Source: Selaginella moellendorffii
Taxonomy: Eukaryota > Plantae > Lycopodiophyta
Reading direction: 5' to 3'
Length of the DNA: 64,000 bases
Assembly (NCBI RefSeq): GCF_000143415.4
Contig: NW_003314316.1
Span: forward strand, 323,090-387,089
Shown piece after piece: positions 4,780-64,000 of this stretch (positions are counted from its first letter, which is position 1; every line of letters begins with the position of its first letter). The notes under the pieces are model-generated. The model was not told the origin of the DNA. It saw only the letters and a program-made list of their open reading frames with translations, and did no database searches. A program made the position numbers and the translations under genes.

Positions 4780-5035
4780 TGCTAGTATCAAGAACCCCCG
4801 CAATATTGAGATTGGTCCCTCAATATCGCTAAATGATAGCTTACCATGTTTGTATATTGGTCTCATTTCGGTCCCAAATGCTATTTATGGAAAGTGTCCA
4901 AATTTGCCATATCTACGGAGTGTAAAAATCGTTTTGTTCATCCTGTGTCCAAATTCGCAATCTAGGGACATTTCATATTTAGTAAGTTTCAAGTTTGTCC
5001 CAGAGACTAACTCCTAATACTAAGGGAGGCTTGGA

Positions 5036-37491: not shown

Positions 37492-38108
37492 TGTGAGACA
37501 CAAAATCCCTAGGCCCCAAAGTGGAGCCGGAAGGGCGCCACATGGTAGTGGCCGAAGCGAGAGCCAAACGAGCGTAACACGTTTGGACCAAAAGCTCCGA
37601 CTTGAAAAGTTAAGAGCGGGAGTGGAACTCCCAATGAAGTGCTCGAGGAATGAGCACGAAGCGAGCAAAAGGCGAGGCTCCAAAAAGGGACCCAAAAGGA
37701 CCAACACATGACACGTGGGAGTGTCCGAGATGGACTCGAGTTGGAGTCCGAAGTGGAGTCCGAGATGGACCCGAGTTGGAGTCCGAAGTGGAGTCCGAGA
37801 TGGACCCGAGTTGGAGTCCGAAGTGGAGTCCGAAGTGGAGTCCGAGGTGGAGTCTGAGATGGAGTCCGAAGTGGAGTCCGAGGTGGACCCGAGATGGACC
37901 CGAGTTGGAGTCCGAAGTGGAGTCCAAGATGGACCCGAGATGGAGTCCGAGATGGAGTCCGAGGTGGACCCAAGATGGACCCGAAATGGAGTCCGAGATG
38001 GAGTCCGAGATGGACCCGAGATGGACCCAAGATGGAGTCCGAGATGGAGTCCGAGATGGACTTCGAGATGGAGACCGAGATGGAGTCCGAAGTCGAGACC
38101 GAGACCGG

Positions 38109-38140
<32 letters not shown>

Positions 38141-41956: not shown

Positions 41957-44900
41957 TCAGCTGGCCTCAGCTCTGGTCATCCTCGACTCTGATTCGGATG
42001 GCTCCGACACATTGGACTCTGGCTCAGCTCCGGCTGTTTCATCATTTGAACGTGTATGGTACTTTTTCAATCGGAAACCATTGATCCGCGTTGGCAGCAG
42101 GTTTCCACTCAAATCTGCCACCTGCACCGAGCCATTGTCGTTGACATTCACCACCACGTAAGGGCCCAGCCACCGTATCTTGAGTTTTCCTGGCCGCTTC
42201 CAAAACTTGCTGTCATACAGCAACACCAAATCCCCTATTGCAAACTTCCGCTCTCGAATATGATCATCATGCCATTTCTTTCTCCGCTTTTGCAATGCCT
42301 CTCTAGCTTGAAATGCCAGCAGCCTCGTCTCATCCAATCGTTCTAGCTCGTTCAACCTCTGCTGTATGGCACCGTCCCAGTCCATAGCATGCTCTACAGC
42401 CGTCCTCAAGGCTGGAACTTCAAGCTCCACCGGCAATAGTGCTTCCTGCCCATAAACAAACTGAAAAGGTGAGAACCGAGTGGTCACCTTAAAAGCAACT
42501 CGATACGCCCAGACTGCATCCAAAAGGCGCTTATCCCAATCCGTCCGAGAAGCTGAGCAGGTCTTAGTAACAATCCGGCAAAGAGTTCCATTTGTACGCT
42601 CCACTTGACCATTGCAACACGGGTAGTAAGGAGTAGACTTCGAGTGATAAACTCCATAAGTTTCTGTCAGTGCTGCCACTGCCTCGTTCAAGAAGTGTGT
42701 ACCCCGATCACTCACCAGTTCGAGGGGAACTCCAAACCGTGTAATTATCTGCTCATAAAGAAAATCCGCCACCTTCTTACCAGTATCCTCCCGTAGAGCC
42801 TTCACCTCAGACCATTTTGTAACGTAATCAGTGCAGACCAGTACATACTTATAACCTGTCCGTCGAGCTGGAGGAAACGGTCCACAAAAATCAATCCCCC
42901 ATTTTTCAAACGGCATCACTGGCAATAGTGGATGAAGAGGTTGGTAGTCACGCTTATCAGGCTTCCCTGCTCGCTGACAAGGGTCACAAGTTTTGACGTA
43001 GTACGTAACCTCCTTCCTCAATGTCGGCCATCAATATCCAGCTCTGCAAATAATCTCCACCGTCGCTTCTGTTCCAAAGTGGCCTCCATATGCCGAATCA
43101 TGGCATGCCGCTATCACCTTAGTCGTCTCATGTGGTAGCAAACACCGCCTCAGTACGCTATCTCGTCCAATCCGGTATAATACACCACCAACCATCGTAT
43201 AGAGTCGGCTCTGCAACAGAAGCCGTCGCTTCTGCCGGTTATTCAACCCTGCCGGATACTCGCCATTGCCAAGGAACTTAACCATCTTGGCATACCAGTC
43301 CGGCACTGTTTCAAATTGGAAGATAGGTGCATCTGGCAAATCATCCTCTACGCCTACTTCCTCATCACTGTCCTGTGGTGGCAGCCTCGATAAGTGATCT
43401 GGCATCTGATGGCTGCTTCCAGGTTTCAACACAATGCGGAACTGAAATTCCTGGAGCAGCAACAGCCAACGTGTGATTCTTCCTGTCTTGCATGGCTTCC
43501 CTATTAAATACTTCAGTGCCTGATGATCAAGGAAAAACACGAACTCCTTGCCAAGTAGATAATGCCGATATTGCTGGATCGCATAGATCATGCCAAGTCC
43601 TTCCCTCTCAGTTGCTGAATAGCTCTTCTCAGCCGTTGAAAGTTGACGGCTGCTGTAACATATTGGATGATCTGCTCGTCCATCTGAGCGTTGACACAGC
43701 ACCACACCAATGGCCACTGCTGATGCATCCACGTGAACGTGAAACTCCAGGTTCCAATCTGGCATCTTCAAAATCGGCGCGTTTACCAGTGCTAGTTTCA
43801 AGCGTTGGAAGGCCGCCTCACATACAATTGTCCACTCATATTTAGCCCCCTTCTTCAGCAGGCTAGTCAAGGGTAGAACTTTCTCAGCAAAGTTCCTCAC
43901 GAAACGGCGGTGATATCCCACATGCCCAAGAAATGCCTGCAATTGCTTCACAGTCTCTGGTGACACCAGCTGCATGATCACCTGCGTCTTGGCCGGATCG
44001 ACAGCTAAACCTTCTCTTGACACTATCCGACCCAGCAGCACTCCATGCGTTACCCAGAACTGACACTTGAACGGGTTGAGAGAAATCCCATAGTGCCGAC
44101 AGCGTTCAAAACACTTCTCGAGAAGGCCTTCATGCGCCAACTCACTCCCATAGACACTGAAGTCGTCAAGGAATACTTCCATAAACTCTCGCATGTACGG
44201 CTGGAAAGCTGCTGTGACAACCCGCTGAAAGGTAGCAGGTGCATTACACAGGCCGAAGGGCATAACTTTGTAGGCGTAGCAGCCCCACTCAGTCACAAAC
44301 GTGGTTTTGAGCTGATCCTCTTCTGCTATCTGCACTTGGTTATAGCCGCTGAATCCGTTGAGGAAGGAATAAAGCTCGTGTCCCGCCACAGCATCAAGTA
44401 CCGTGTCAGTAAAGGGCAGAGGGAAGCCATCCTTCTCAGTCACCTCGTTCAGCTTCCGGTAATCCACACAGACTCGCAGCTGACCATTCTTTTTCGGCAC
44501 CACCACAATCGGAGACAGCCACTGGCTCATTTCCACCTCGTAAATAAACCCAGCTCGCAGCAACTTCTCCAGCTCCTCTCGAACAGTCTTGGAGTAATTC
44601 GGGTTCATCCTATACGGCCGCTGCCAAATAGGCACTGCTCCTGGCTTGAGAATGATCCGGTGCTGAGCCAGCTTCACATCCACACCTCGCATGTCTCTAT
44701 AAGACCATGCAAACACGTCGAGGTACCTGTAAAAGAGGCGCCTCAACCTTTCCTTAACTTGGACCGGCAAGTTAGCTCCGACCTTCACCACCTTTTCCTC
44801 CTCGGCTGATCCGAGGTTCATCTCTTCGACAATTGGCTGAGCTGTGTATCGGCTACTACCTCGTCCTCCAGGCTGGATCGCTGGCTCTTCATCAATCTCT

Positions 44901-46243
44901 GGAACGGAACCATCTATAACTTCAGAATAAAAATGGCGGGGAAACTGCTGCAGTCGTTCCTGCTCCACTACTGGCTCCAAGTCCTCGACCTGAACCATTC
45001 GACAGCTCACATCACCACCAAACAACCAATGCTTGAGTCGATCACTTGCTGTTCCATCTTCAAAAGGTGACAGCAGCAGGGCATCGTAGCCGGAGCAGGG
45101 CTCCACAGCTGCTACCTCCACTGAACTCTCATCATTCGACCGACTCTGCTCCGAACACACCTCACTCATACGCTCTCCTGCTTCTGATCCAGTCGTGGTA
45201 TCACTACTGTCATCGATCCCATCCACTATCGGCTCACATGCCACTGGAGTCCAGGCCGGCCTCTTCCTCGTCCGAACTTGGATAGTGCGCGACTTGTTTC
45301 CATCTCCAATCTTAATAGTCCCCTTCGGCCAACTCTGATCTGCCCAGGCCTGTAACAACCACGGTCTTCCCAAAAGAATTGGATAATCCAGCTCATGTCC
45401 AACCATCCTCAGCACCACGTAATCAACATAAAAGATAAAACCGGCAATCTCCGTCTTCACCCCAGTAAGTACACCAACCGGTCTCGAGCGAGAATGATTC
45501 GCCATGCGGACACGAAAATAAACTGGAGACAGCTGCTCCAACCCAAGTTTTGACACCATTTGCTCAGGCATTACGTTGATGGCAGCACCTCCATCAATCA
45601 CGCACCCCTTCAAGTGCTGACCTGAAATCTCTACATCTATAATCGGATTCTCTGCTTCGATCATCGGCCATGCTGCATTCACTACCACCTCTCGATGGGC
45701 CTTGACTGCTGTGGCCACCACTTTCCTCAGACTTGGTGCCAGCTGTAGTAATTGCGCAAATGTGATACTCGGCTTCTGATTCTCTAAGTCCTTGAGCACG
45801 TCGTAGGGCTGAGTTTCCAGATTTAGCACTTGCTTATACCGGCGAGATCTCCGCTGGCCCATCTTCAACGGCTCACCCCCAAAATGTTCCTTGAATACCT
45901 CTGCCAGCCGCTGCAGCGTCGAGATGCCCACCTTCCTCATAACCTCTTGCGGATCCATTCCACCACTCACCTGGTTCGCATCCGTTTCCTTGCCGTCATT
46001 AGGGCACTGAATAGTCCCCGTGATATTCTTGGCGAGATCTCCGCCATCGGCTATTGGCGCATCCTGAATGCCGCCTCCTTCCAGACCTAAGTCGATCCCC
46101 ATTTTTTCCTTGTGGTGCTGCTCCTTCCTGTTTTGGCAAGCTATCATCTCTGGATCCTCCTGAGTATGCGTCCGCTCAATTCTCTGTTCAGCCCTTGTTC
46201 TCGGCTCATCTCGGATGTACAACCCGCGGTCCCTCCGCTGCAA
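41957..46243 (-). pseudogene. pol: Pol (protease, RT, RNase H, integrase), in frame with gag; internal stop at 43031
   Basis: VIDGGAAINVM protease, [24 protein letters not shown] RNase H, KWGIDF...SDRGTHF...NGQVE integrase, WLGPY; RAGY*WPT stop. Confidence 0.93.
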
Positions 46244-47692
46244 CTATGCTCGTGTGTTGACATTCCACACAGGTGTGTCCGCTCTCAACTCTTCAGAATT
46301 CACAAAAATGGCTTTAGTATCCACCACCTCTTTTCCCTTGTCCTGATTTTGACGCTGATTTGGCACTTGCAAGCAGTAGGGGCAATCCTCCTGTCGATGA
46401 AGTCCCTGTGTCTGGCATATCCCACAGATTGGCTGATACTCTTCAGACTTCTGTGCATTCGGACAGTTTGGTGCGATATGTCCAGGTTCCCCACACCGGT
46501 AGCACACTATCGGGCCTCGGCCTCGGCCTCTGCCTCTGCCTCCGAACATTCCCATCCGGCCGCCACCTCGGCCTCCACCGGCAGTCTGCTGCAGCATTGG
46601 CCCCGAGTTCTGCACAGCTCCTGGAGCTCCTACGTTAAAAACCGGGTACGTCTCATACTGCTGGTGCTGAACCTGTTGCTGTGGAAATTGTTGTTGATGG
46701 TGAAATTGTGGTTGAACGTAATAGCTTGCGACTACAGGTTGCTGCTGGAACTTGGGCGTCACACGAGCTGGATGAAAAAAGCACTTCTCAGGCTTGTGGC
46801 CGAACTTCCCACAATACGGACAAGGAGCTTTTGCTGGTATCAGATTCGGACATTCACTAGGATAGTGGCCATATCCTTGACACTTAATGCACCAGATCTC
46901 AGCTCTCTCATGCACCGGCCGAGTTGGAGCTCCCAAACCTTGAACCAGACTCACTTGGAGTTCTGCCATCTTCTTGGTAAGTGTCTCCACCACATCTTCT
47001 TTCACTTTTGTGAGTTGGCTCTCAAATCCGGTCATGTTTCCTACAGGTAACTGGAGAACTGACGGCTGGACCGGAATCAAAGGTGGAGCTGCTACGGCTC
47101 CAAGCACACCAGTCTGGTACTGTGCAATATTCGGTGAGAACAAGTTACCATATGTTGCTGGTGGAGCTGCAGCTGCAATATTCCGCGATGACATCCGGGC
47201 CTGTTCCCATGTTGCTGCGTGCTCCACTGCTGCGTTCAAATCTGCCGGTCTTTGCACCTTCACGTGGAACCCGATTTCAAATGGCAACCCATTCAAGAAC
47301 CAGCGGACTTGGTCGTCAGCGGCAGGCTGTGGATCTTTCCTCGCGAGCAGCCTCTTGTAGCGAAGAACATAATTTTGCAATGTCTCTCCAGGTAACAATT
47401 GAATTGAATTTAGCTCATCACTGATACGCTGCTTGAATCCCATAGGACGGAAAGCATTGAGAAATGCTGTTTTGAGGTCTGCCCAGGCTGCAAAGGCTGC
47501 TGCTGCATTCGCCTGACCATACCATTCTGCTGCTGCTCCCAGCAATGTTGCCGGAAACAGACGGACTCTCACAGCATCTGCCTGCTCCTGATTTGCTGTG
47601 CTGACGTTTTCAAAAGCAGTTACGTGAGCGTCTGGATCGTCAGTCTGTGTAAACGTTGGATACTTCATCCTCGCATTGGCAGGCTGTGCCAT
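46244..47692 (-). CDS. gag: Gag with multiple CCHC zinc knuckles
   Basis: Retrotrans_gag-like DPDAHV...LFPATLLGAAAEWY...W.DLKTAFL; knuckles CIKCQGYGHYPSEC, CPYCGKFGHKPEKC, CYRCGEPGHIAPNC. Confidence 0.9.
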   Translation of the reverse strand: MAQPANARMKYPTFTQTDDPDAHVTAFENVSTANQEQADAVRVRLFPATLLGAAAEWYGQANAAAAFAAWADLKTAFLNAFRPMGFKQRISDELNSIQLLPGETLQNYVLRYKRLLARKDPQPAADDQVRWFLNGLPFEIGFHVKVQRPADLNAAVEHAATWEQARMSSRNIAAAAPPATYGNLFSPNIAQYQTGVLGAVAAPPLIPVQPSVLQLPVGNMTGFESQLTKVKEDVVETLTKKMAELQVSLVQGLGAPTRPVHERAEIWCIKCQGYGHYPSECPNLIPAKAPCPYCGKFGHKPEKCFFHPARVTPKFQQQPVVASYYVQPQFHHQQQFPQQQVQHQQYETYPVFNVGAPGAVQNSGPMLQQTAGGGRGGGRMGMFGGRGRGRGRGPIVCYRCGEPGHIAPNCPNAQKSEEYQPICGICQTQGLHRQEDCPYCLQVPNQRQNQDKGKEVVDTKAIFVNSEELRADTPVWNVNTRA

Positions 47693-48015
47693 TTGAGGAT
47701 TTACTGCTTGAGGTGTGGGCGATGTTGGTTCAAATGGCCCCCACTCCTCCCAATTCAAACTTGAGTCCGAAGTCCTCGGACTAGTTTCAGGGCTGGTTTC
47801 AGGCGAATTCTGCAACAGTCTCCTCGCTGCTCGTTCAGAACGGCCTCGATTCTGCTCTGCCCTTCTAGTAGAAAAATCTAGAAAATTATCCCAGTCCGGG
47901 GATCTACCCGCCAGACCGAGAACCAACTGTGGCAAAGATGCTTACTGCAGATGCCCGCAGATGACCGGCCTTTTCCTCAGGCCCGGTTTACTGCGCAGTT
48001 ACTGCGACTAAGCCC

Positions 48016-48032
48016 TCCCGGCTAACGCACCA
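48016..48032 (-). other. Primer-binding site complementary to a tRNA-Gly-like 3' end
   Basis: Plus strand TCCCGGCTAACGCACCA lies 5 nt inside the 5' LTR edge; the ...TCCCGGC...GCACCA pattern resembles tRNA-Gly 3' ends. Confidence 0.65.
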
Positions 48033-49086
48033 AAAAATGTGGGGAAAAATACACAACAACCAAGAAAGACAGGAAAGACTCCCCTAGGGCTTGTATTTCA
48101 GCAGTAACTACAAATCACTCATACTGAGTGCGCTGGGCCTGCAGTAACTCCTCTATGATCACGGCGATGGGATCTTGACGGCCTATAAGAGGTCCCACCA
48201 TCTTCAAGCAGAGAGAACTCCAGAACCCGAGAGAGAAAACAAGAACTATAAAATAACTGAATGGCCGTACCTAATTTCAAACTCCCAAAAACTTAAACAC
48301 CAACCAATGGCTGAAACTTTCCTAGCTAATAAGTCTTCATCCACAACTCCGATCGACTTGATTTCACCACCAAAGAATTGCCCTTGATCAGATCTTCAAC
48401 TTTCTAGAAAACAACTTCTTCAAATTCTCACTTCTGAAATCCGTCATTTTTTCTCTCTCTAGACGAAATATTCATAGGAAGCTTCTTCAATGAGCTTCTT
48501 CATTTTTCACCTTTTTCTAGCTTAGAAATACGTCAGTACTCACAAAAACAACCTCAAGTATGAAAATACGACCATATATATGGTTGACAGCTCTACAACT
48601 GGTTTCGAAATGCTTAAGCATTCCAGGTCTGATATAAGAGTGTCCATGGGCCTTGGTCTCAACACACCACGGACGGGAGGTGTTCTCAAGGCAGCGCTCA
48701 AAAGATCCTCTGGACTCACAAAAATCTCCTCCGGAACAGCTTCCAAATGTCCATCCCTCGCAGGAAGAAAGCACGTACTGCCTTCGAAAATTGATCTCCG
48801 AGTAAAAGTTTTGGGAGAAGGACTCTCCTCCTGGAGCTCGAACGCATCCACTTCGGCAAAATGTGCTTGCTTCTCTCGAACAAAAGTGGCTGGAGGTTTC
48901 AAAGGAACCACCCTTCTCTGGGATCCATGAAAAAACTCAGGAACTCTCAAAACCTGGAAAAACCCAAAGACTTACTTTCATCTGGGCCGAAAAACGTTGC
49001 AGCGCACAAGGTATCTTATGGTGCGCAAAATCCTTTTGAAAGACCACACTTGTTCGTCTTGAAGAATCCAATCCACGAGTAAAGAT

Positions 49087-52372: not shown

Positions 52373-52435
52373 GCCCAACCTAAAAAGTTTCAAGATATCT
52401 TTCACTTGGAACTATTGTATGTTAGAGAAAAAGTT

Positions 52436-54293
52436 TTATTTTCGAAGCAGGCCATTGATAGAGTTAACACTGAGGAAGCCAGCCTTAAGTTTGCCGCTGG
52501 TCATCCTCAAGTCGTCAATTATATAGCTCCAAGTCAAACCCAACACTCCCACAAAGAAATCACACTCGGCTGCCATGACCAAGTTTATAAAGGCCGTGTT
52601 GAACGCTTGCTTGTCTCCAAGCAACGCCATATACTCCGCCATCCTGATCGTTCCAACTTGCCTTGGAACATCACTGTAATAAAACTTCCAGCCTTTGTAC
52701 TCCTTGGATTCATCCACGACGTTCTAAACCATGCAAAAGCTTTGTGATTTCAAATCTTTGTCAATGGCTTTCTTACCTGCATTTCTGTGGAAAGCCACAC
52801 ACTTCTTACGTGTGGGAATCTCTTCCGGAGGACATTAGCGAGCTTCATGTATTCGTCAAAAGAGACTACTCTCATCTCGCTGGCTTTGTCACCCTGTCTC
52901 ACATGAATGCTTAACAGAGGCCGCGGCATCCAAGGTCCATAGTCACTCCACACATGTTCTTCCATGGGATTACTGGAATTACGCTTACTCTCATTTCTTG
53001 TATGCGGCCATTCAGTGCCAAGGGTTTTAAGCACCAGTTTTGCAACTTCTTCCCCAAAGGCTCTATGTCGTTCTTTGTTTAAAAGATTGCACAGATACTC
53101 ACTTGGAAATCGTGTGAGATAGCGAAGTGCCTGTATACGTTAATTCTAGATCATTAGCCTACCATTTGATGAATGAGAAACTTGCCTGAGCTCTCCACCA
53201 CCTTCGATGATTTGTGTGGTAATTTGTCATGAGCTTGTCTTTTACCCCCACAGTTGGTCGCATTGCTTTCCAAGGCTCTCCCCAAAAACTAAAAACCAGA
53301 TAATACTAAGTTACTGTATGAAAAAAACTCTTTTTTCTCACCTTGGTATCTCACCATTCCATTGATCGCCACTAAACTCTTTGATAATTCCCTCGTCCCA
53401 GGCCTGTTTTTGCTCAGCAAGCCGCAATGCCCTTTCCATGCACTCCTCAGAAGCCTCGGGAACAAAGTAGCACGACCAGCGAGCGTGGTTGGATCCTAGC
53501 ATTATTTTAACACTTTGAAAACATCAGCCCGAGATAGTCGATAAAAGAGTTTTGAAACCTGTGCATCCTTTGTGCCTGGCACCGTGGTAATCCTTGGTAA
53601 TGAAAACCCGGCCTTGTATTAGCGCAGCTCCAAGCATTCCGGCCATTGACACCATGTCAGATCCAACTCCTACCGAGTCGCGCGTCTCGTCGTGGTGCCA
53701 AAGTGCGAGAAGAAATCTCGCATCGGTACAGTTTTTCGGGTGTTGGTGCAACCAAATATCACGCTGGACGCGTCGCGTTAACGGGATATTATCGTCATCA
53801 CCGCTAATGACCTGTCCAAGAGCAGCAAAAGGCTACTGAGAAAACCAAGAAAACGAGAAAGATTACCCGATCTAAGAAGAACCTACCTATAAGAGAACTT
53901 ACCCATGCTGATGCTTGTCTCTGAATTCATGTCAAGCTCCTCTTTTTGCTGGTAAAATCCCTTCCAGGATGGATCGTTCCTGCGATCAAACTCTGCAGTC
54001 TCCTGGCTGCATCGCTTGCAATCCTGGATGTGCGGTGCATTGATCGTCACCTCGGGAGGCGTTGCACCGCTCACTCTCGACTACAGATCGCTGCTCCACA
54101 GATCGACCAGGAGTTTTACTCTGCTCGACGCAGCCGAGGTCGAGGAATTAATTGATCTTGGTGCGGGTGTTGGTGTTACACTAGCCTCTTGGCGATCCTG
54201 TTTCATCCAGTTCATTCTGAAACTAATCAAACAACCAAGTTCAAGGACAAGATCCAAAACAGGAGCCATTTCAGGGAATCCTTCTCCTTTCAT
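52436..54293 (-). pseudogene. GT23/FUT8-like fucosyltransferase copy 3 (most complete, but with an in-frame stop and a frameshift near the 5' end)
   Basis: APHIQDC, RRVQRDIWLHQHPKNC, ARWSCYFVPEASEEC, RWWRAQ, PRPLLSIHVRQGDKASEM, AECDFFVGVLG. TAG at 54081-54083 and a frame slip before the donor at ~53903. Confidence 0.8.
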
Positions 54294-54631
54294 CCTTTTG
54301 AGAAATTAGACGAGCACCTAATAGAGATCATGATCCTATAGTACAGTTGACTAATGCGACCATGATGGAGATTTTTTTGTGGAAGTAAATTCACGAACGT
54401 GCTGAACACTAGATTTCTCGTTTCAGCAACAAAACAACAGTAAAGAAGAATAGCTGTCTGATTATACCAAGTGCGTGCGCCACATGTAACGTAAAATACT
54501 CATTTTTACAGTCTGTACCAAAATCGAATCTAGCAAAGAGAAGGGCCGTCCGATCTCCTCCATCCAAGGGTACAGACTAGAAAGCTTAAGATGAGTTTGA
54601 ATGTCAGTCGAGCTTACCTTACTCCAAAACT

Positions 54632-56915
54632 ATGTTTGGGAGCAATGGACTGAGGAAGATTTTTGGGATTGGGGTTACAGCTCTTGTGCTTTTATTCATA
54701 ATAATCGCTAACATTTTGTGGAGTAAGAGTAGTGTTGATTCTTTCTGGCATGTTGGCCCTTCAAAGTCTTTGGTGAAATGGGATGATCACAACAGCACAG
54801 GAGTTTTCATATGGCCAGTCCCCCAAAAACGTCTCCAAGGGATCGATTTCCATGAGACTGTGCACAAAGTTTGCCATAACTCCTCCCAGAACTTTAAAAG
54901 TCTTGCAAGCAGGGATTGATCGCTACACGGTATTGATTCTCAAGCAGAGAAAGCTAAGGATTCCAGCGAAAAAGAATCCACCAGATTTTGTTTTGGACGA
55001 ACTTCGTATCGAGCTCAAGTCATTCAACCAAAGCGTGAGAGAGACAAAAATTTTAACTTATTTTTCTAGGGAGCTCTATCTTGGTGTAGATGAATCGTAT
55101 CGCCTCCAAGTCCCCGACCCTTCAAATTCAAGGGTAGTATTAGCAAAATCTTTGAAGTTGAGCGCTGGTTCACCTCCTTTCTAGCGGCAAGAACTGTCTA
55201 TGGGGCCCTACGAGGACTCGAGGTAGGCTTGAAAACAAAAGTTTTGGATTTGCTAAACTATTTGCATTTTTTATAGACTTTTAGCCAGATTTGCACTTAC
55301 AATGCTGTCGAAAGAGCTGTGCTTTTGCAAGGCTGCCCATGGAACATTTTTGACGAGCCTAGATTTTCATATCGAGGCCTTTTGATTGGTGAGAACTTTT
55401 TTTCTTTAGAACAGACAACGGCCTCTAATTAATTTTCACTCGCTTACCAGATACTGCTCGACACTACTTGCCATTAAAGACGATAGAGAATGTGATCGAC
55501 TCCATGGCCTACGCGAAGCTTGTGAGTTCCAATTTCTCTATCCCTTATATATGAGCCGAGCCCCTTTCTAACTTCTTTGCCTCCAGGATGTCTTGCACTG
55601 GCATGTTGTCGACGAGGAGTCCTTCCCTTTGGAGATTCCATCGTTTCGAAAGGCTCCTACTCTATCTCTCAGCGCTACAACCTCGATGATGCAAAAGCTA
55701 TAGTCAAGTAAGCTATACTTTGAAAGAGAGTGCAAATGTCCATGCTTTTATTCTTATACAGGTATGCTCGATTGCGAGGTATACATGTCATGCCAGAGAT
55801 TGATGTCCCAGGCCACGCTCGCTCATGGTAAACTTCTTCTGCCTCCATTGTAAATTAATAGATTTACTTGCGTGTAGGGGAGTTGGATATCCTGAGCTAT
55901 GGCCCTCTGAAAACTGCAAAACACCTCTGGACATCAGTAAGAATTTCACTTTTGAGGTGATAGATGGCATATTTTCCGGTATGAACATGTTTTATATTGA
56001 ATCAAAATCCTTGTGTCAACTCTATGCTGCCTAGATCTCTCAAAGGTGTTTCCATTCGAGCTCCTTCATATAGGAGGAGATGAAGTTAACACTAGTAAGC
56101 AGCAAATTTTCTTGGTGATTGTCAGCTTATTTTCTGCTAAACAGGATGCTGGGAAATCACAGAACCTGTAAATGACTGGTACGTTAGATTCGGTTTTACG
56201 AAACATCCAACTGTCTGAAGCAGGCTGAGAAAGCACAATTTAACACCTTCACAGGGCTATGAGTTTTTTGTGCTTCAAGTGCAAAAACTGGCCTTGAAAC
56301 ATGGATACGTTCCTGTCAACTGGTAAGGAGATTAGCCATGTCGGATTCCATTAAGTTTTGCTCTCTCTAGGCAAGAACCATTTGAAAAATTTGGACCAAG
56401 TTTGTCAAGGAAAACAATTGTTCACAACTGGTAACTTATCAAAAGGGGTTGTCTCTCTAACTCAGATTGTTCAAATGGCTATTCAGGTGGGGCACTCAAA
56501 TTCCTCCCAACACTGTCAGCTCGGGCCTCAAGAGTATAGTTAGCGAGCAATTTTCATGGTCACATTGATATACCATGGGAGGAGTTTTATTCAAAGGAAC
56601 CATATGATAACATTGCCAGCCACAAAGAACAGCAGTTGATTATTGGAGGTGAGGTTTGTATGTGGGGTGAGAAAGTTGATGCAGCCAATATCCAACAAAG
56701 AATATGGCCAAGGGCAGCAGCGGCGGCAGGCAAGCTAGCTTCACTGTATTTGCTTTCTTGGCTAACAATTTTTATTTTGGCCAGAGGGGCTTTGGAGCCC
56801 ATCTAATGTCACAGGTTTGGGTCCCAAAAATGCTGCTCCTAGGCCTGAATTTTTCAGAAGCCTGCTGAATGAAAGAGGAATAGCTGCTTCTCCAGTGAAA
56901 TCAAAAGAAGGCTGA
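54632..56915 (+). pseudogene. Beta-hexosaminidase (GH20) paralog, frameshifted
   Basis: Same exon structure as 28218-30445 ([24 protein letters not shown]). Frameshift at ~54822, deletions at ~55647 (EIPSF/GSYS) and ~56560 (WYLDH lost). Confidence 0.85.
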
Positions 56916-56970: not shown

Positions 56971-59335
56971 TGAGGACAGGGTATGCTCATAGTGGCTTGA
57001 CGTTCTCTTGCTTCTCGTCGTAAGTCGCTCATTCACACGATCGAGGGCGCTTCGCCGAGGACCTCTTCGTTGAGGCATCTTTTTTCCTTTATTCTCTTCT
57101 CCTCACATATAATTGATCTCCTGTTTTTTCCCCCTTAAGTGTCCCCAATGGTCGTGACCCTAATACTGAAGTGGCGGCAAATGGAATATTCCCTCAGTTC
57201 TACCCCCACCTATTGGCCCGGAGCACACAGCTCCACGGCAGCTTCATCTCGCTCATGGTACTTGCGCAGGCGAGCTCCATTAACACGAGTAGGTAACAAG
57301 TTCCCACTAAGATCTTCAAGCTGAACCGAGCCATTGGTAAAAACTTCAACGATGCGATATGGGCCAAGCCAGCGAATACGGAGTTTCCCAGGCTTTTTCC
57401 AGTGCTTGCTATCGTAAAGGAGAACCTGATCACCAGCAGAAAAATTTTTAGCATGCAAATGACGATCGTACCAGACTTTGCGGCGCTTCTGAAGTGCTTC
57501 GCGAGCTTGGAAAGCGAGAAGTCGACGCTCGTCGAGTTGGAGAAGTGTGTCCAGTCGAGCTTGAAGAGTGTTGTCCCAGTCCAAGTTGTGCTCGACAGCC
57601 ATACGGAGAGATGGAATCTCAAGCTCGAGTGGTAGGATGGCTTCTTGTCCATAAACAAGCTGGAACGGTGAAGCTTTGGTGGTGACCTTGTAAGCAACGC
57701 AGTATGCCCAGAGAGCATCCAACAAGCGTTGATCCCAATCTGTGCGAGAAGCACTGGCAAGCTTCGTGATAATGTCGCACAGTATCTTATTGGTGCGCTC
57801 CACCTGTCCGTTAGCACGAGGGTGATAGGGAGTGGACTTACGATGAGCGATGCCATACTTCTCCACCAAGGTCGCGATCACTTGATTGATAAAGTGAGTA
57901 CCTCTATCGCTCACCAGCTCCAAAGGGCAGCCAAATCTCGTGATGATGTTCTTGTAAAGAAAAGTCGCAACCTTGGCAGCTGTGTCTTCCGTGAGAGCTT
58001 CTGCCTCGGCCCACTTCATGACATAGTCCGTGCACACGAGAATGTAGCGGCAACGGGAAGGATGGCTGGCTGGCTTGATCGGTCCCACAAAATCGATGCC
58101 CCACTTCTCAAAAGGAAGCACCGGAAGTAGAGGATTAAGCGGCATCAGATCACGACGAGTTGGGCGACCAGCACGCTGGCAGGGATCGCAGGTCCAAACG
58201 TAGGCAGCAACATCCTTGTGAAGCGTTGGCCACCAGTAGCCTGCTTGGAGAACCAACCGAATTGTTCCTTGTGAGGAGAAGTGGCCGCCATAAGGTGAGT
58301 CATGGCATGATGCTATGACTGTCTCCACCTCATGAGGAAGGATACAACGGCGTAGAACATCGTCACGGCCAAGGATGTAGAGCTGGCCATGCAGGAGAGA
58401 GTATGGACGAGCCTGGATAATAAGTCGCTTGCGTGCGGTGACCGTAAAGTCAGCAGGGAACTCGCCGGTAGCCAGATAATCTGCAATCCCTTGATACCAT
58501 TCGGGAACAGCGTCGACCGCAAAGAGATCCGTGGTGTCGCAAGAAAACAGAGTTGCATCAGCTGGGTCATCCTCAAGGTCCTGGGAGGAGGGAGGGCCTG
58601 GCAATCGTGAAAGGTGATCGGCCATGGCATGAGCGCGGCCGGGTTTCAGGATCACCTCAAAGTCAAATTCCTGGAGGATGATGAGCCAGCGAGATATGCG
58701 ACCTGTGCTGCAAGGCTTGTTGACGAGGTACTTGAGGGCTTGGTGATCCACGAAAAATTTGAAGTGTGTGCCCAACAGGTAGTGGCGATACTTCTGCAAA
58801 GATCATGCCTAAGCCTTCCCGTTCAGTGGCAGAGTAGTTGCGCTCGGCAGAGGAGAGTTGGCGGCTTGCGTAGAAAATAGGGTGATCGATGCCCTCTCGC
58901 AGCTGGCAAAGAACAGCGCCGACAGCAAAGGCAGAAGCATCCACGTGGACGTGGAAAATAACTGTCCAGTCAGGAACGGCTAAAATCGGAGCAGTGATCA
59001 GAGCTCCCCAGAGAAGCTCAAATGCGTCCTGACACGCTGGTGTCCACTCATAAGGCACGCCGGCCTTCAAGAGTTTCGTCAGAGGCAAAGCTTTAGTTGC
59101 GAAATCGTAGATAAAGCAGCGATGGTAGCCGACATGGCCCAAGAAAGCTTGAAGATCTTTTTTAACGCGCGGTGGTTCCAGGTTCTTCACGATAGCCACC
59201 TTAGCTGGATCCACAGCTAATCCTTCCCAGGAGACCACTCGACCGAGAAGAATGCCACGGGGAATGCCAAACGAACACTTGGAGGGATTTAGAGAAATGC
59301 CATAGAAACAGCAACGTTCAAAACATTTTTCGAGT
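56971..59335 (-). mobile_element. 5'-truncated Ty3/gypsy element (RT C-terminus, RNase H, integrase, PPT, putative short 3' LTR ~56971-57196), related to the 41-48.6 kb family
   Basis: HVHVDAS, YSATEREGLGMI, KWGIDFVGP, SDRGTHF, NGQVERTN, WLGPY; frameshift ~58798; PPT GGTGGGGGTAGAAC followed by TGAGG...CCTCA ends (left LTR edge uncertain). Confidence 0.88.
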
Positions 59336-61661
59336 TTTATGCAATGAGATAATTAGATCTCTAAAATATTGTCAATTTATTGATCTTTGAGTTTAGGCCA
59401 GTATAGGTAAATTGGCTTTGGCACTTCATATGCATGGTGAAATCTTTAGTTATGGGGGTGGCTACTATAGACTAGTCACATCAACTGAATCCTAGTAGCT
59501 GAAACCAAGTAGGACCAAGTAGGAGCTGGTACCATAGGCGGGAACCTTGGCGAGGGAACTTAACAAAAGCCAAGGCAGTGTTGGATGGGTATACGAGGTA
59601 AACTGGCAAATTGGAAAGGAAAAATTTGTGGCTTACAATTTGGTATTGGAGCCTTTTCCTCAATTCTAGCGAAGGATAGAGGCGGATTGCTGGGAGATGG
59701 CAAAGGCAGGGTGGAAGCGAACCAAGGTGGAGATAGAACCTCCTCCAGAGATGGAGCCTCCGGTTGGTGGACAAAGGGTATGTTAGGTTGAGCAAGTTGC
59801 CATATGGGGCGCCGATGCTATTTGTGAAAAAGAAAGATGGATCTATGTGCATGTGCATAGACTACCGGTTGCTCAACAAATATACAAAGAAGAACAAGTA
59901 CCTTTTGCCAAGGATTGAGGACCTGTTTGATAGGTTGGGAAAGGCAAAATACTTCTTGAGGATTGACCTAAGGTCAGAATACTACCAGATCAGGGTAGCA
60001 GAGGAAGATGTCGAGAAGACAATCTGTCGAACGAGGTATGGGAGCTTCGAGTTTCTGGTGATGCCCTTCGGGCTATGCAATGTGCCGGCAACATTTTCAG
60101 CATTGATGAACCATATCTTTGTACCCTATTTGGATCACTTTGTGGTTGTCTATATTGACGACATCCTGATCTATAGCAAAACGCTAGAGGAGCATGCTAA
60201 ACACTTGACGAAAGTGTTTGAGAAACTAAGGGAACACCAACTGTATGCTAAAGAGAGCAAATGTGACTTTGCTCAACAAGAGGTAAAGTTTCTCGGGCAT
60301 GTGGTGGGCAAGGACGGGCTCAAGGTGGACCCTGAGAAGGTCCAAGCGATCCAGGATTGGGAGCGACCATCGAATGTACATGAGTTAAGGGCATTCTTAG
60401 GGTTATGCAACTACTATCAAAAGTTTATCAAACACTATTCGAGAGTAGCCCTGCCCTTAACGGACCAAACGGGAAAAAGGAAGATGGTATGAACAGCGGA
60501 ATGCGAGGTGGCATTCGTCCACCTCAAGGGGAAGTTGAGGAAGGCTCCCGTGTTAGCGTTACTAGACTTTGGTAAGGACTTTGAGGTAGAAACAGATGCT
60601 TCAAACTTTGCGTTGGGCATAGTTTTGAAGCAAGACAACCATCCAGTAGCGTTCTTCTCGAAAAAGTTGGACAAGGCTCAACAGAAGTGGCCTGCCCATG
60701 AGAAGGAATTGTTTGCGGTGGTCAAGGCACTCAAGGAGTGGTGACATTACCTTGGGAGACACTTCAAGGTTTATACGGACAATGTGGCAATGAAACACTT
60801 CTTGTCACAGCCCGACCTGAGGGGAAAACAAGGTTGGTGGGCCAATGCTTTGGCCGAGTTTGATTGTGAGATTCTATACAAGCCTGGGAATGGCAACATC
60901 GTGGCAGATGTGATAAGTCGAAAAGCGAGCTTGAAGTTGGCGATATCTAGCGCGACAGCAACCTTTTGGGATGATGTGCGGACCGCATACGAGAACGATG
61001 GTCTAGCACAAGAAATGTTGCTGAGGAATCTAAAGGCACAGGAAGCTCACCAGAGAGGTGAGCTGCCAACAGAAGAGAAAACGGGCTATGCGGAACGCAA
61101 TGGACTCATATATTACAAGCAAACGAGGTGTATGTTCTAGAAAGGGAACTAAGAAAGGTAGCCTTGGAAGAGTGTCATGACGGACCTCTTGTGGGACACG
61201 GCGGAGTGCCAAGACAATGGGCTTACTCAAGAGGAAATACCACTAGCCAGATATGGCTAAGGATGTCCAAGACTATGTAAAGATATGTCCCACATGTCAG
61301 TAGGTCAAAGCCGTGACTAAGGCTAGTGGGGGCTTGTTACAAAGCATCCCAATTCCAGATCGTCCGTGGAAATGTCTTACAATGGACTTCATCACGGGAC
61401 TTCCCCCAAGCGGGGGGTTCGATGCGATATTCGTGGTGGTGGATAGATTTTCGAAGATGGCACATTTCATACCCACCACAACGGAAGTGGATGCGGAAGG
61501 TGTGGCGAAGCTGTTCTTTGAATAAGTGGTTCGAGTGCGGGGAAGGCCGGAAGAGATTATCTCAGATCGAGATAAAATCTTCACCAGTAGGTTCTGGAGG
61601 ACATTCCTAGAACAGTATCACACCAAGTTGAAATTCAGCACAGCCTATCACCCGTAGACAA

Positions 61662-61708
61662 GTAATGGGTATTAAGTCAAGGTTGATGGCACTAACACTT
61701 CTTGACAG
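61662..61708 (+). other. 47-nt spliceosomal-type intron in the integrase core
   Basis: GTAATG...CTAAC...CTTCTTGACAG; removal restores HPxT(D/N)GQTERVN. Confidence 0.75.
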
Positions 61709-62126
61709 ACGGACAAACGGAAAGGGTGAATAGGCAGCTGGAGGATTATTTGCGATGCTGTGTCTCGGGAGACCATACCAATTGGGTAAGTCATTTGGGA
61801 CTTGCGGAAATGTGTTATAACAACTCACCACATTCGAGCATCGGGGTGAGTCCATGGGAAGTCATCAATGGGCGAGCTATCAAAGGTCCTGCGGAACTCG
61901 GTGTGGCCGAGTATCATGGAGAGTTACCCGCAGTGGAGGCATTCACGGCGGAAAGACTCAACATTTGGAATCTAGTGAGGGATTCCTTGGAACGGGCTCA
62001 ACAAAGGCAAACTAAGTACGCGAACCAGAAGCGCCGGGATGTAGAGTTCCAAGCTGGGGAGAAGGTGTGGCTGAACACCAAGAACCTCAGGCTACCAAGT
62101 GGGATCAGCCGGAAGTTGACCCAAAG

Positions 62127-62174
62127 GTAAAAATGCATGTATTCTTGTAAATTGATCTTGAGTTCCTTAAACAG
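62127..62174 (+). other. 48-nt spliceosomal-type intron before the GPY motif
   Basis: AG|GTAAAA...TTCCTTAAACAG|G; removal restores RKLTQRFTGPYEI. Confidence 0.8.
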
Positions 62175-62840
62175 GTTCACGGGGCCATACGAGATTGAGG
62201 CTCGAATCGGTAAAGTGGCTTACCATTTTCGACTTCCTCGAGAGATGGGGAAGATGAATCCTGTGTTCCACGTGAACTTACTCAAGACGTATTTTGAGGA
62301 TTCGCTTCGCAAGGACCAAGTAAGACTTTTACCTTAGGTTATCCAAGGGGAAGAGGAATACGAAGTCGAAGCCATCCTTAATGCGCGCAAGAGCAAGCGA
62401 CAAGAATGCGAGGAGAGAGAGTTCCATGTGAAGTGGAAAGGATTTCCACACTGCGAAGCAACATAGGAACCGGAGGCGAACTTAGCGAATGCGCGAGATC
62501 TAGTGGAGGAATTTCTGCAAGACAGAACTCTATGTACTTATGCAAAGTTCAATTAAAAGTATCAATTTGAGAAGTTGAGCATTGGCATATGTTGGGACCC
62601 GAAGGCGCGCCGAAGGTAAGCTAATTAGCATGGGTTAGCTAAGTCGACCAGACGTAGGGGAACTACGCCCGACTCCTTGCAGGGATGTCAAATCCGTAGA
62701 CATATTCTACGAAGGTTGGGTTCGAGTCCCAACCCCCTAGTAAAGCAAGGCTGGGTTCAAGTCCCGACCCTATACTAGGGCATGGTGAGGAGAGGAGTAT
62801 AGGGACACCTATATTCCGTTGTCATGGGCTCGTGGCCAGG

Positions 62841-63433
62841 TGTAAGCAACCAAAGGGAACGACTCGAGAGACGATCCATGGGGTTCAAATATAGAGGGAA
62901 AGGGCCCATGAATAAGAGTGCACCCCCTTTTTCAATCGGTTAAGGGTTTTGGGATACTTGGGGTTAAGCGTCCTTGGGTTTGAATAGTACTGGGTTGGGT
63001 GACCTCCTGGGAAGTCCAAACTCAGGAGCTTACATTTGGTATCAGAGTGGTCTCGGGTCCGACTCTGTTGGTTGGCTAGGGGAATCACACCACATGTTGA
63101 TTGACATCTGGCTGGTCCAGTTTGCTCCCACTGGGCTCGACCCGAGGGGTAGGGTGTCAAGAGAGCGGGGCTCTCGGGAGAGTTGCGGCTCTCAGCTTCC
63201 GTTCACGAGGGCGTGAACTTGCAGGGAAGCGTGGTGGATTGTAAGCAACCAAAGGGAACGACTCGAGAGACGATCCATGGGGTTCAAATATAAAGGGAAA
63301 GGGCCCATGAATAAGAGTGCACCCCTTTTTTCAATCGGTTAAGGGTCTTGGGATACTTGGGGTTAAGCGTCCTTGGGTTTGAATAGTACTGGGCTGGGTG
63401 ACCTCCCGGGAAGTCCAAACTCAGGAGCTTACA
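62841..63433 (+). mobile_element. Complete Cassandra TRIM retrotransposon (593 bp)
   Basis: 194-bp LTRs 62841-63034 and 63240-63433 (TGTAAGC...GCTTACA, about 5 differences), PBS TGGTATCAGAG (tRNA-iMet type) at 63037, purine-rich PPT before LTR2, TSD CCAGG/CCGGG, and a 5S-derived core in each LTR. Confidence 0.95.
62963..63017 (+). promoter_or_regulatory. 5S rRNA-derived Pol III internal control region (A-box/IE/C-box) in Cassandra LTR1; second copy 63362-63416
   Basis: GTTAAGCGTCCTTGGG...TAGTACTGGGTTGGGTGACCTCCTGGGAAGTCC matches the plant 5S segment GTTAAGCGTGCTTGGG...TAGTACTAGGATGGGTGACCTCCTGGGAAGTCC. Confidence 0.9.
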
Positions 63434-63506
63434 CCGGGGAGGCTAACTTAGGCACACCGCTAAGTGGGGGGATGCCCCCGGAGACATGGTCAACAAGTCG
63501 TAGGAT

Positions 63507-63560
63507 GAAAAAGAGACGTTCGATGTGGGCATCGAAAAAGAGACGTTCGATGTGGGCATC
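63507..63560 (+). repeat. Perfect 27-bp tandem duplication upstream of the PPT
   Basis: GAAAAAGAGACGTTCGATGTGGGCATC twice. Confidence 0.95.
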
Positions 63561-63669
63561 GAACTTCTTTTATGGGAGGTGGAGTTGTAAGGAACCAACT
63601 TGCCGAGGTGTCGTAGGCTAAAGGAACCCCGAAAGCATGACCAAAATGATAAAGAGTTCATCGGATGGG

Positions 63670-63925
63670 ACCAAGTCTGAGATCGAGTCCAAGACCGACT
63701 CTGAGACCGAGTTCGAGATAGAGTCCAGAATCAAGTCCGAGGCCGACTCGGAGACCAAGTTCAAGACCGAGTTCGAGACCGAGTTCGAGACGGAGTCCGA
63801 GATCCGAAATCGGGTCCGAGACCGAGTCCGAGGTCGAGCCCGAGGTCGGGTCCGAGATCGAGTCCAAGACCGGATCCGAGATCAAGTCCGAGATCGAGTC
63901 CGAGATCGAGCCAGAAACTAAGTCC
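63670..63925 (+). repeat. Degenerate hexamer array (GAGTCC/GAGACC/GAGATC) in the chromovirus LTR
   Basis: 6-bp periodicity; homologous to 700-945 (minus) and similar to 37720-38240. Confidence 0.9.
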
Positions 63926-64000
63926 AAGTACTAATACGGGTCAAGGGGTGAAAGCCCAAAGCGTGCGTCTCCTAGGGGGCTGGGGGGGGGGGGGGGGGTG

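Follow-up and report, generated by a model that had tools for sequence, protein, structure and literature searches.

The window analysed here, a stretch of 64,000 nt of Selaginella moellendorffii DNA (contig NW_003314316.1), carries between 59 and 64 kb a degenerate copy of a Ty3/gypsy chromovirus family that is abundant in Selaginella, the order of its domains (RT, RNase H and an integrase with a C-terminal chromodomain) being that of a Ty3/gypsy chromovirus. The host E1 gene elsewhere in the window (22443–26083) is 97–100% identical to S. moellendorffii protein P0075 in six of seven segments, while the remaining segment, which takes in intron sequence, is 87% identical. Eight of 23 sequencing runs were compared with the element, two of DNA (X1, and X4 from organism B) and six of RNA type (X15, X16, X18, X19, X20 and X21); the RNA status of X15–X20 is a guess, and the contigs carry no strand. 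The features of the copy are as follows.

59366..59637, plus strand: 3′ part of the 5′ LTR, truncated upstream and ending in CTTACA (loose contig ends, depth, terminal inverted repeat)
59598..59663, plus strand: leader intron of 66 nt over the LTR end and the primer-binding site (PBS), with no ATG inside (skipped in X16 and X19)
59641..59653, plus strand: PBS of 13 nt for tRNA-Met, 3 nt past the LTR end (PBS pattern; published SM1-Galahad PBS)
59697..59764, plus strand: putative gag start, at the first ATG past the leader intron; a deletion of about 1.9 kb comes next (position)
59782..60960, plus strand: RT and RNase H, with in-frame stops (Pfam RVT_1, E = 5e-35; RT_RNaseH, E = 3.5e-30)
61187..61661, plus strand: integrase before intron 1, comprising the zinc-binding region and the core with both Asp (tblastn of homologues; Pfam rve, E = 2.9e-13)
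61662..61708, plus strand: integrase intron 1, 47 nt, in the HPxTDGQTE motif (skipped in X16 record 3)
61709..62126, plus strand: middle exon, with the catalytic Glu, the remainder of the integrase and the first part of an SH3-like domain
62127..62174, plus strand: integrase intron 2, 48 nt in this copy (skipped in X16 record 3; GT..AG)
62175..62556, plus strand: last exon, with the rest of the SH3-like domain and a group I chromodomain (Chromo, E = 3.3e-13; SH3_Tf2-1, E = 3.2e-12)
62841..63433, plus strand: nested unrelated insertion, a Cassandra-like TRIM whose two 194-nt LTRs contain 5S rRNA-like sequence
63574..63584, plus strand: polypurine tract, 10 of 11 purines, directly before the LTR start (sequence)
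63586..64000, plus strand: start of the 3′ LTR, running off the window (TGTAAG; a 12-nt tandem array; 17 G at 63982–63998)

The end of the 5′ LTR at 59637 is marked by 47 DNA contigs that exit behind it into many different flanks (agreement 0.38) and by a depth of 1.55 million in the bin 59524–59635, against 0.5–1.2 million over pol, and its CTTACA is the inverted repeat of the TGTAAG at 63586. The PBS pattern recurs at 63037 and 36111, and a related LTR start, 78% identical and beginning at the same base, lies at window position 1021 on the minus strand. An alternative 3′ LTR start at 62591 was dropped, as there is no rise in depth at that point, no loose end is listed, and the polypurine tract, the TGTAAG and the related LTR start all indicate 63586. 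The deletion after 59764 removes the rest of gag and the protease; family contigs continue with other sequence behind 59764 and before 59763, and the missing length is 1,907 nt if ORF1 is 3,885 bp. The gag label is suggested by position and by a related gag fragment at window 1–660, and Pfam gave no match in the three frames of 59354–59781. A degenerate protease at 59598–59668, once considered, was discarded on the same Pfam result and because the site holds the LTR end and PBS. The 5S-like stretches of the TRIM reach 36.8 and 37.1 bits with RF00001, slightly below the gathering score of 38, and a 5-nt repeat, imperfect by one mismatch, borders the insertion. The copy is dead, and the stops attributed to it in a sequence-only reading that preceded this analysis are there: in frame in RT/RNase H, in the integrase (whose 5′ part also has two single-base gaps, near 61126 and 61208) and twice in the last exon.

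The family is likely SM1-Galahad, the Galadriel-related chromovirus of S. moellendorffii described by Novikov et al. 2012 (PMC3350952), an assignment made on anatomy. That description gives hundreds of copies about 95% alike, many with large deletions and none found intact in 2012, with an LTR of more than 1 kb, a poly-G tract of 11–25 nt, a 13-bp tRNA-Met PBS and an element of about 7.5 kb; in the consensus of many copies ORF1 stops after the integrase core and two short ORFs follow, one of 316 bp and then one of 309 bp that carries a group I chromodomain, whereas the sister SM2-Galahad has a single uninterrupted ORF of 4,731 bp (PMC3350952). Our element shares the TG..CA LTR ends, the poly-G tract, the 13-bp tRNA-Met PBS and the polypurine tract, although both of its LTRs are incomplete. 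Its middle exon contains an ATG frame of 318 nt, matching the published 316-bp ORF2, and its last exon one of 309 nt (62245–62553) that corresponds to ORF3. The published 309-bp ORF is given as 113 aa, whereas 309 nt make 103 codons (PMC3350952). The parts of the element sum to 7,481 bp against about 7,500 published, a figure that is partly circular in using the published ORF1 and LTR lengths. In X1, 37,070 family contigs are 80–100% identical to the window copy (7,012 at 99% or more, 12,259 at 95–99%, 13,236 at 90–95% and 4,563 under 90%), in keeping with hundreds of copies about 95% alike, though contig depth in this run is no copy number. A quick tree of 52 RTs, with no named Galadriel reference among its rows, placed the element at a polytomy. 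Searching proteins with the middle exon gave no close full-length relative, annotated spliced gene model or SM2-Galahad protein: the best match was 47% over the whole query among 73 longer proteins and 48% at most among the best 150 representatives, and proteins of near length gave one 88-aa match. A metagenome scan returned 11 loci, none with DNA similarity to the element. The words “intron” and “splic” do not occur in the full text of the SM1-Galahad paper (PMC3350952).

The sequence-only reading had placed two inserts with GT..AG ends in the integrase, at 61662–61708 and 62127–62174, and both are present as described. Without splicing, translation would reach an in-frame stop a few codons into insert 1 and at once in insert 2. 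That exact removal restores the integrase motifs was borne out when every cut of 0–90 nt around each motif was scored against homologue profiles (63 usable rows at site 1 and 60 at site 2, from 73 proteins): at site 1 (4,550 cuts) each of the ten top-scoring cuts takes out 47 nt, and at site 2 (3,276 cuts) each of the top ten takes out 48 nt. Cutting at the GT-AG borders raises the score from 16.8 to 96.5 at site 1 and from 0.9 to 36.6 at site 2; these cuts rank 9 and 5, the higher ranks being the same-length cut shifted by a few bases. Removal of insert 1 gives the D(35)E spacing, which places intron 1 immediately before the catalytic Glu; insert 2 divides the Pfam SH3_Tf2-1 domain, exon 3 beginning at profile position 24 of 64. 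As had also been stated, other gypsy integrases in the window lack such inserts, at least in the two examined, a plus-strand chromovirus remnant near 39900–40400 (read by eye) and a minus-strand gypsy integrase in the stop-free frame 57210–58802.

Some particulars of that reading held only in part. Insert 2 is indeed AT-rich (29% GC against 48% in the coding DNA of the element; 0.04% of coding windows are as AT-rich), but insert 1, at 40% GC, is mildly so, being matched by 17.8% of 47-nt windows. A canonical branch point, CTAAC, is present in insert 1, but its A lies just 13 nt before the acceptor, and TTGAT at 22 nt is an alternative candidate. The lengths are near those of host introns, though each insert falls a little below the range of the six host E1 introns of the window (53, 55, 56, 58, 58 and 94 nt). 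Insert 1 is flanked by a 5-nt direct repeat. As to an origin from a MITE or filler, no MITE-like structure was found: the leader and the three introns fold no better than shuffles (z-scores of 0.04 for insert 1, 0.73 for insert 2 and −0.54 for the leader intron), the opening 21 nt of insert 1 are unique in the window, and neither insert has a second match there.

Rather than being unique to one copy, both inserts are family-wide in X1, where the insert bins have depths of 855,792 and 694,043 against 794,273–1,067,162 in the four adjoining bins and are thus covered about as deeply as their flanks. Both are also covered in organism B (X4), and the covering of insert 2 is evident at position 62171, where G makes up 272,795 of a depth of 275,718. 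No joint skipping an insert occurs among the 15 best supported of the 80 joints in X1. Insert 2 varies in length within the family, with a form 4 nt longer and one 1 nt shorter; the 4-nt insertion, at 62149, is found in 12,249 of 111,480 in X1 and 132 of 140 in X4. Insert 2, 48 nt long, holds three of the six indel rows listed for the pol region, all of lengths not divisible by 3, though rows may not be independent; we do not rely on the binomial value for this clustering (about 1e-4), since the rows may describe one event. X20 shows a 1-nt deletion within insert 1. In X1 one DNA contig, with a depth of 146, is missing the leader intron with borders exact to one base, and rare intronless DNA copies may exist, given that the joints listed are the best 15 of 80.

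Among the RNA-type runs, X16 is transcriptome-like, its 25.8 million letters yielding 3 family contigs while the 209.7 million of X1 yield 37,070, and one of the three holds both junctions that the sequence-only reading had proposed to look for, 61661^61709 and 62126^62175. This contig (record 3; 2,500 nt, 59911–62503, 93.2% identical to the window copy) skips exactly 47 and 48 nt; its first joint is listed as 61656^61704, and the 5-nt repeat lets it slide to 61661^61709. The integrase splices are seen in this one contig, from one of the six RNA-type runs, and the leader splice in two of the six, X16 and X19, from two studies: X16 record 1 has a joint 59585–59664 with 12 letters between, equivalent to 59597^59664, and an X19 contig has 59597^59664, skipping 66 nt. 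A second X19 contig joins the same leader donor to sequence absent from the window copy, with an acceptor not found in the window. Leader and integrase splices sit on separate contigs, and the pattern per run looks all-or-none, X16 being spliced at all three sites and X15 retained only. Retained forms are common (X15 records 9, 14 and 15; X20 record 19; X18 record 8), with intron 1 retained in X15 record 14 and X20 record 19 and contigs of X18, X19 and X20 running into insert 2; these may be DNA carry-over. The raw RNA of X21 gave 6 reads in 9.2 million and no joint, too few to count either way. GT..AG ends and exact removal in likely RNA contigs, with YTNAY motifs as candidate branch points, correspond to U2-type introns, and we infer that the host spliceosome removes the three inserts.

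Two further introns had been suggested upstream. The candidate at 59407–59470 found no support; its place is within the 5′ LTR, none of the listed joints skips it, and other copies, by their loose-end letters, do not have AG at the would-be acceptor. The one at 59598–59668 proved to be a real intron, but its 3′ border is at 59663, and it straddles the LTR end and the PBS instead of lying in gag-pol. The 5′ LTR loses its final 40 nt to this intron, which also takes in the tRNA-Met PBS and has its acceptor 10 nt past the PBS. The major donor of foamy viruses also lies upstream of the PBS. The leader splice signals are better in the family than in the window copy, which has lost the acceptor AG: in X1, the G at 59602 of the family donor GTAAG accounts for 855,038 of a depth of 909,019, and the G at 59663 of the acceptor CAG for 890,601 of 909,097 (98%). 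The branch point would be the CTTAC at 59632, its A 28 nt before the intron end.

Intron loss is a classic signature of retrotransposition. For a family with three short GT-AG inserts that are absent at their exact borders from likely RNA contigs, we consider it likely that splicing divides the RNA into a protein-making form without the primer site and an unspliced form that alone would be reverse transcribed. This fits the proposal of the sequence-only reading, that unspliced RNA is the genome and spliced RNA yields integrase and chromodomain, and the third intron, which removes the PBS, gives it an added basis. The fully spliced RNA would encode Gag-Pol with a complete integrase and chromodomain and, lacking the PBS, would not bind the primer tRNA. 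The unspliced RNA would keep the PBS, encode merely a catalytically incomplete integrase and serve as the packaged genome. With unspliced RNA as genome, every new insertion would inherit the introns, which would persist because only unspliced RNA would replicate; this would require RNAs with the leader intron but without the integrase introns to be rare or unpackaged. The leader intron may have come first and made the internal introns affordable, since the mRNA pool would already have been spliced and already barred from replication.

By a narrower preference we extend this to an LTR retrotransposon with a self-enforcing RNA split. The leader intron would delete the LTR end and PBS from the mRNA, so that spliced RNA is never copied, and host-type introns would have been gained in the integrase behind that gate, so that unspliced RNA never makes active integrase. 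Translation and replication would then be exclusive fates set by the spliceosome, an element copied through RNA could acquire introns and retain them as host genes do, and the LTR end recognised by the integrase may double as a branch point. Proteins for SM1-Galahad could also come in trans, as no intact copy was found in 2012 and the sister SM2-Galahad has one ORF (PMC3350952).

The alternative that survives best, though we think it improbable, accepts that the introns are real and needed for the integrase and has them kept by other means than the PBS-removing intron, either through a separate start site with an uncapped unspliced pool, as in BARE, or through Gag capturing nascent RNA before it is spliced. 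In barley BARE, the RNA that is translated and the RNA that is packaged form distinct pools (PMC3735527). In our data, X15 record 9 keeps the leader intron and has 541 letters upstream of 59494, and X16 record 1 starts roughly 110 nt ahead of the donor, a difference compatible with two start sites, though contig ends do not mark RNA ends. LTR splice donors can also serve chimeric transcripts, and one X19 contig joins the donor to sequence absent from the window copy. However, the leader acceptor just past the PBS is near-invariant and the spliced form appears in two studies, and removal of the PBS blocks tRNA priming regardless of how the genome is chosen, given the role of the PBS (PMC12786077).

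A second alternative, which we regard as distinctly unlikely, makes SM1-Galahad a non-autonomous passenger moved by the single-ORF SM2-Galahad, with the inserts as tolerated junk spliced by chance and without a role in the life cycle. The published lack of an intact copy, the large deletions in many copies and the related 4,731-bp single-ORF family would all suit a passenger (PMC3350952), as would the stops and the missing gag and protease remainder of the window copy; the few reads in the X21 raw RNA point the same way and say little. Yet each insert is removed exactly, with conserved motifs and the D(35)E spacing restored; the protein character of the middle and last exons is still evident, whereas indels cluster in the inserts; and it is improbable that two junk inserts would both be perfect introns by chance.

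We give still less credence to the X16 contig coming from an intronless genomic copy or subfamily, whether ancestral or made from spliced RNA, with the inserts as DNA insertions in an expanded subfamily. The guessed RNA status, the list of joints being the best 15 of 80, the DNA contig that almost exactly lacks the leader intron and the 5-nt direct repeat at intron 1, as expected of a small DNA insertion, leave some room for it. X16, however, also lacks the leader intron, a joint seen in two studies, and because this loss destroys the LTR end and PBS, the X16 form cannot be the DNA of a mobile subfamily. All three inserts are GT-AG in the family, the 15 best supported joints of the DNA run skip none of them, and a processed DNA copy, too, would have to descend from RNA that had been spliced. 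Introns are often acquired by host genes that derive from retroelements, and the insert sizes are close to those of host gene introns. Domestication of pol into a single-copy host gene with acquired introns is nevertheless scarcely credible, in view of the 37,070 DNA contigs, LTR ends with varied flanks, a PBS and polypurine tract, and a published family of hundreds of copies (PMC3350952).

The proposed RNA split has partial parallels in other elements. Where three separate ORFs were reported for SM1-Galahad, we read the ORF breaks as introns and add a third over the LTR end and PBS. Ogre of pea and Medicago is likewise a Ty3/gypsy element with an intron kept in its DNA and spliced from a subset of transcripts to give the whole polyprotein, as described in PMC6317226 and PMC12786077; unlike Ogre, our element has three introns of 47–66 nt, two in integrase coding sequence and one over the PBS. 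The region of the Ogre-type intron (GAG-PROT/RT) is deleted in the window copy, and the published SM1-Galahad ORF1 is continuous there (PMC3350952). In EVADE, other Ty1/copia elements and BARE1, introns are also removed by the host spliceosome, with spliced RNA translated and unspliced RNA as genome (PMC5580714, PMC3735527). In EVADE and copia elements, though, splicing yields a Gag-only RNA and the unspliced RNA encodes full Pol (PMC5580714), the reverse of the arrangement here, in which full integrase would come from spliced RNA alone; for Arabidopsis Ty3/gypsy elements the same source reports that no splicing pattern is conserved. Penelope-like elements, including Chlamys-3_cRei, keep introns through retrotransposition and have a 5′-UTR intron across the boundary of terminal repeat and body (PMC8557442), both as here. 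Foamy viruses make Pol from a spliced RNA distinct from the genome RNA, but by one large splice that skips gag and with no small introns within pol (PMC7828637). A 2025 review describes plant LTR elements as generally without introns, with Ogre and EVADE as exceptions (PMC12786077). We found no such case in the available text of PMC2864245, PMC2911113, PMC13148404, PMC3315495 and PMC2923131, and among literature titles and abstracts, outside repeat databases and subscription journals, no report of introns that interrupt an LTR element of Selaginella, the integrase of any LTR element, or a PBS.

If an abundant chromovirus has two integrase introns of 47–48 nt and a third that deletes the PBS, this would give a plain physical account of an old problem, the apportioning of a single transcript to translation and packaging. 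The uninterrupted SM2-Galahad is a ready reference for dating when a selfish element gained its introns, and the case carries a warning for annotation, as families called broken or non-autonomous for a split pol may be intact spliced elements. The model can be tested directly in a model lycophyte.

The integrase of the chromovirus copy at about 59366-64000 is interrupted twice, at 61662-61708 (insert 1; 47 nt, 40% GC) and 62127-62174 (insert 2; 48 nt, 29% GC), both with GT..AG ends as the sequence-only reading had claimed, and each introduces an in-frame stop when read unspliced. That reading's further description of them as AT-rich and of host-like intron size holds in part: insert 1 has only a mild AT bias, and the two are slightly shorter than the six introns (53, 55, 56, 58, 58 and 94 nt) of the E1 ubiquitin-activating gene at 22443-26083, which is 97-100% identical to Selaginella moellendorffii protein P0075 in 6 of 7 aligned segments, so that the DNA comes from this plant or one very near to it. 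Precise removal does restore the integrase motifs. Scored with profiles from 63 (site 1) and 60 (site 2) of 73 homologues, all ten best cuts excise 47 nt at site 1 (of 4,550 possible) and 48 nt at site 2 (of 3,276), the GT-AG cut scoring 96.5 versus 16.8 uncut and 36.6 versus 0.9 uncut, respectively. The catalytic Glu lies directly after insert 1, whose excision gives the D(35)E spacing, and insert 2 splits an SH3-like domain upstream of the chromodomain. A 5-nt direct repeat (61657-61661 and 61704-61708; one mismatch in the copy) flanks intron 1, and intron 2 has AG/GT at both ends; this pattern would fit an origin of the introns by small insertions that left duplications, a weak sign because splice consensus accounts for part of it. 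As had been said of other gypsy integrases here, a degenerate chromovirus-like remnant at 37200-40450 has no insert at either motif; it also carries an interruption of about 1.7 kb with the 12-nt array type of the Galahad LTR.

At 59637, DNA contigs exit into many different flanks and depth is greater just upstream; this position is therefore the end of the 5' LTR, beyond which the copy holds the following.

59641-59653, plus strand: 13-nt tRNA-Met primer-binding site (PBS), 3 nt past the 5' LTR end
59697, plus strand: first ATG
59763/4: deletion of about 1.9 kb, taking the rest of gag and protease; loose contig ends in DNA and RNA-type runs
Downstream of the deletion, in this order: RT, RNase H, integrase, SH3, chromodomain, with stops and two single-base gaps
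62841-63433: Cassandra-like TRIM with 5S rRNA-like LTRs, in the element's 3' UTR
Directly ahead of the 3' LTR: PPT
63586 to past the window end: 3' LTR, with 12-nt array and 17-G run

The copy itself is dead; its stops were already noted in the earlier reading. A second gypsy pol fragment (57210-59352, minus strand) adjoins its truncated 5' LTR and may have caused the truncation. The TRIM, of which a further single LTR lies at 4598-4791, has the ends TGTAAG..CTTACA, the same 6 bp that bound the LTR of the host element, and each of the two uses a tRNA-Met PBS; a Galahad-type integrase may therefore move it. Elsewhere in the window are a young full-length gypsy element with no chromodomain (41019-48337, minus strand; 300-nt LTRs 99% identical; gag, protease, RT, RNase H and integrase matches in three long frames) and an inverted pair of beta-hexosaminidase (GH20) genes (28200-35700, minus; 52400-56900, plus), whose exons are 71-84% alike; traces near 31400-32300 point to a third, partial copy.

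The copy likely belongs to the published family SM1-Galahad, judged by anatomy rather than direct sequence comparison. Novikov et al. (2012, PMC3350952) describe hundreds of copies, about 95% alike and about 7.5 kb long, with LTRs of >1 kb containing poly-G tracts and a 13-bp tRNA-Met PBS; a 3,885-bp ORF stops after the integrase core, without the chromodomain, which is encoded by the second of two short ORFs that follow (316 bp, then 309 bp). The sister family, SM2-Galahad, has one 4,731-bp ORF. The copy's corresponding frames are 318 and 309 nt, and its parts plus the published ORF1 and LTR lengths make 7,481 bp. The published SM1-Galahad consensus, built from many copies, is broken where the inserts sit, and a word search of the paper gave 0 occurrences of "intron" and "splic".

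Both inserts are family-wide, as that broken consensus and DNA depth indicate. In DNA run X1 (37,070 contigs aligned to the element), insert-holding bins have depths of 855,792 and 694,043 versus 794,273-1,067,162 in adjoining bins, and neither insert is skipped among the 15 listed of 80 joints (points where a contig skips or leaves window sequence); DNA run X4, labelled another organism, covers both. Insert 2 holds 3 of the 6 pol indel rows among those listed, none a multiple of three, in rows that may not be independent. Rare copies without introns may nevertheless exist in family DNA.

Both are also likely spliced. The junctions expected from the sequence, 61661^61709 and 62126^62175 (the latter GT..AG; ^ joins the last and first kept bases), occur in one 2,500-nt contig (59911-62503) lacking 47 and 48 nt; the first is listed as 61656^61704, within the 5-nt repeat, and slides to 61661^61709. 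This contig is from run X16, presumed to be RNA, whose 25.8 million letters gave 3 contigs, unlike a DNA run; the contig's 93.2% identity to the copy means that it comes from another locus. Integrase splicing was seen in one of six RNA-type runs examined, their RNA status being guessed; contigs that retain the inserts are X15 records 14 and 15, X18 record 8 and X20 record 19. From raw run X21, 6 reads matched, with no joint among them. Contigs of X18, X19 and X20 (three runs, two studies) enter insert 2 up to the homologue of 62151 and all continue into one common foreign sequence, at depth 64 in X19; the probable source is a single expressed locus whose intron 2 is truncated or carries an insertion.

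A third intron, in the leader, spans the 5' LTR end and PBS. The sequence-only reading had proposed 59598-59668; the intron is real, its joint 59597^59664 (66 nt skipped) appearing in X16 record 1 and one X19 contig from two studies, but it ends at 59663. Its other candidate, 59407-59470, finds no support: it lies in the LTR, no listed joint skips it, and other copies have no AG at its end. The leader intron holds the LTR's last 40 nt, the PBS and a pyrimidine run, with no ATG; its sole YTNAY motif, the LTR-terminal CTTAC 28 nt ahead of the acceptor, is its candidate branch point. Donor and acceptor are both decayed in the copy; in family DNA the GTAAG donor is present in 94% of depth and the CAG acceptor in 98%. 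A second X19 contig joins the leader donor to sequence not found within the 64-kb window, X15 record 9 keeps the intron, and one X1 DNA contig (depth 146; homologous to 59574-59664) lacks it to within one base; the bases may have been deleted there, or the contig may be a processed copy that arose from spliced RNA. At 1-1021 on the minus strand, a gag fragment (Pfam Retrotrans_gag) is joined to a related LTR start that shares 78% identity with 63586-63903; the LTR end and PBS are deleted, so the leader intron is not visible there.

A tRNA that sits on the PBS primes reverse transcription (PMC12786077). Leader-spliced RNA would be replication-dead because it loses the PBS and LTR end; also relieved of the integrase introns, it would encode a Gag-Pol with full integrase and chromodomain, of about 1,557 residues if calculated with the published ORF1, versus 1,577 for SM2-Galahad. 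RNA with all introns would be primable, but its integrase would stop ahead of the catalytic Glu. As only intron-keeping RNA would be primable, the introns would pass to each new insertion. What is observed is the geometry and the spliced contigs; we infer that the spliceosome is required, that the three splices are coupled, and which RNA is translated and which packaged. X16 is all-spliced and X15 all-retained, which fits coupling but does not prove it, because these are separate contigs and X15 may hold DNA. On balance, we consider it probable that spliced RNA serves for protein while unspliced RNA replicates, the introns thereby being kept. The main alternative, which we regard as unlikely, is that the introns are real but genome RNA would be sorted by another route, for which BARE offers an example (PMC3735527). 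It is less likely again that the element is a non-autonomous passenger, and quite doubtful that the X16 contig had an intronless genomic source. A domesticated gene is very improbable.

Among known systems, Ogre can make its full polyprotein only after a single longer intron, located between GAG-PROT and RT, has been spliced out (PMC6317226). In EVADE and BARE1 splicing yields Gag-only RNA, a logic opposite to that of the Selaginella element; the same source reports that Ty3/gypsy elements of Arabidopsis show no conserved splicing (PMC5580714). Introns are also kept by Penelope-like elements, in one case across a terminal-repeat boundary (PMC8557442), and foamy viruses use spliced RNA as their Pol source (PMC7828637). 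No title or abstract among those searched, which came from outside repeat databases and subscription journals, dealt with small introns placed within the integrase of an LTR element or across a PBS. Thus, while the family and LTR elements with introns are already known, the arrangement of introns in this Selaginella element appears to be new, and it is surprising and open to direct test.
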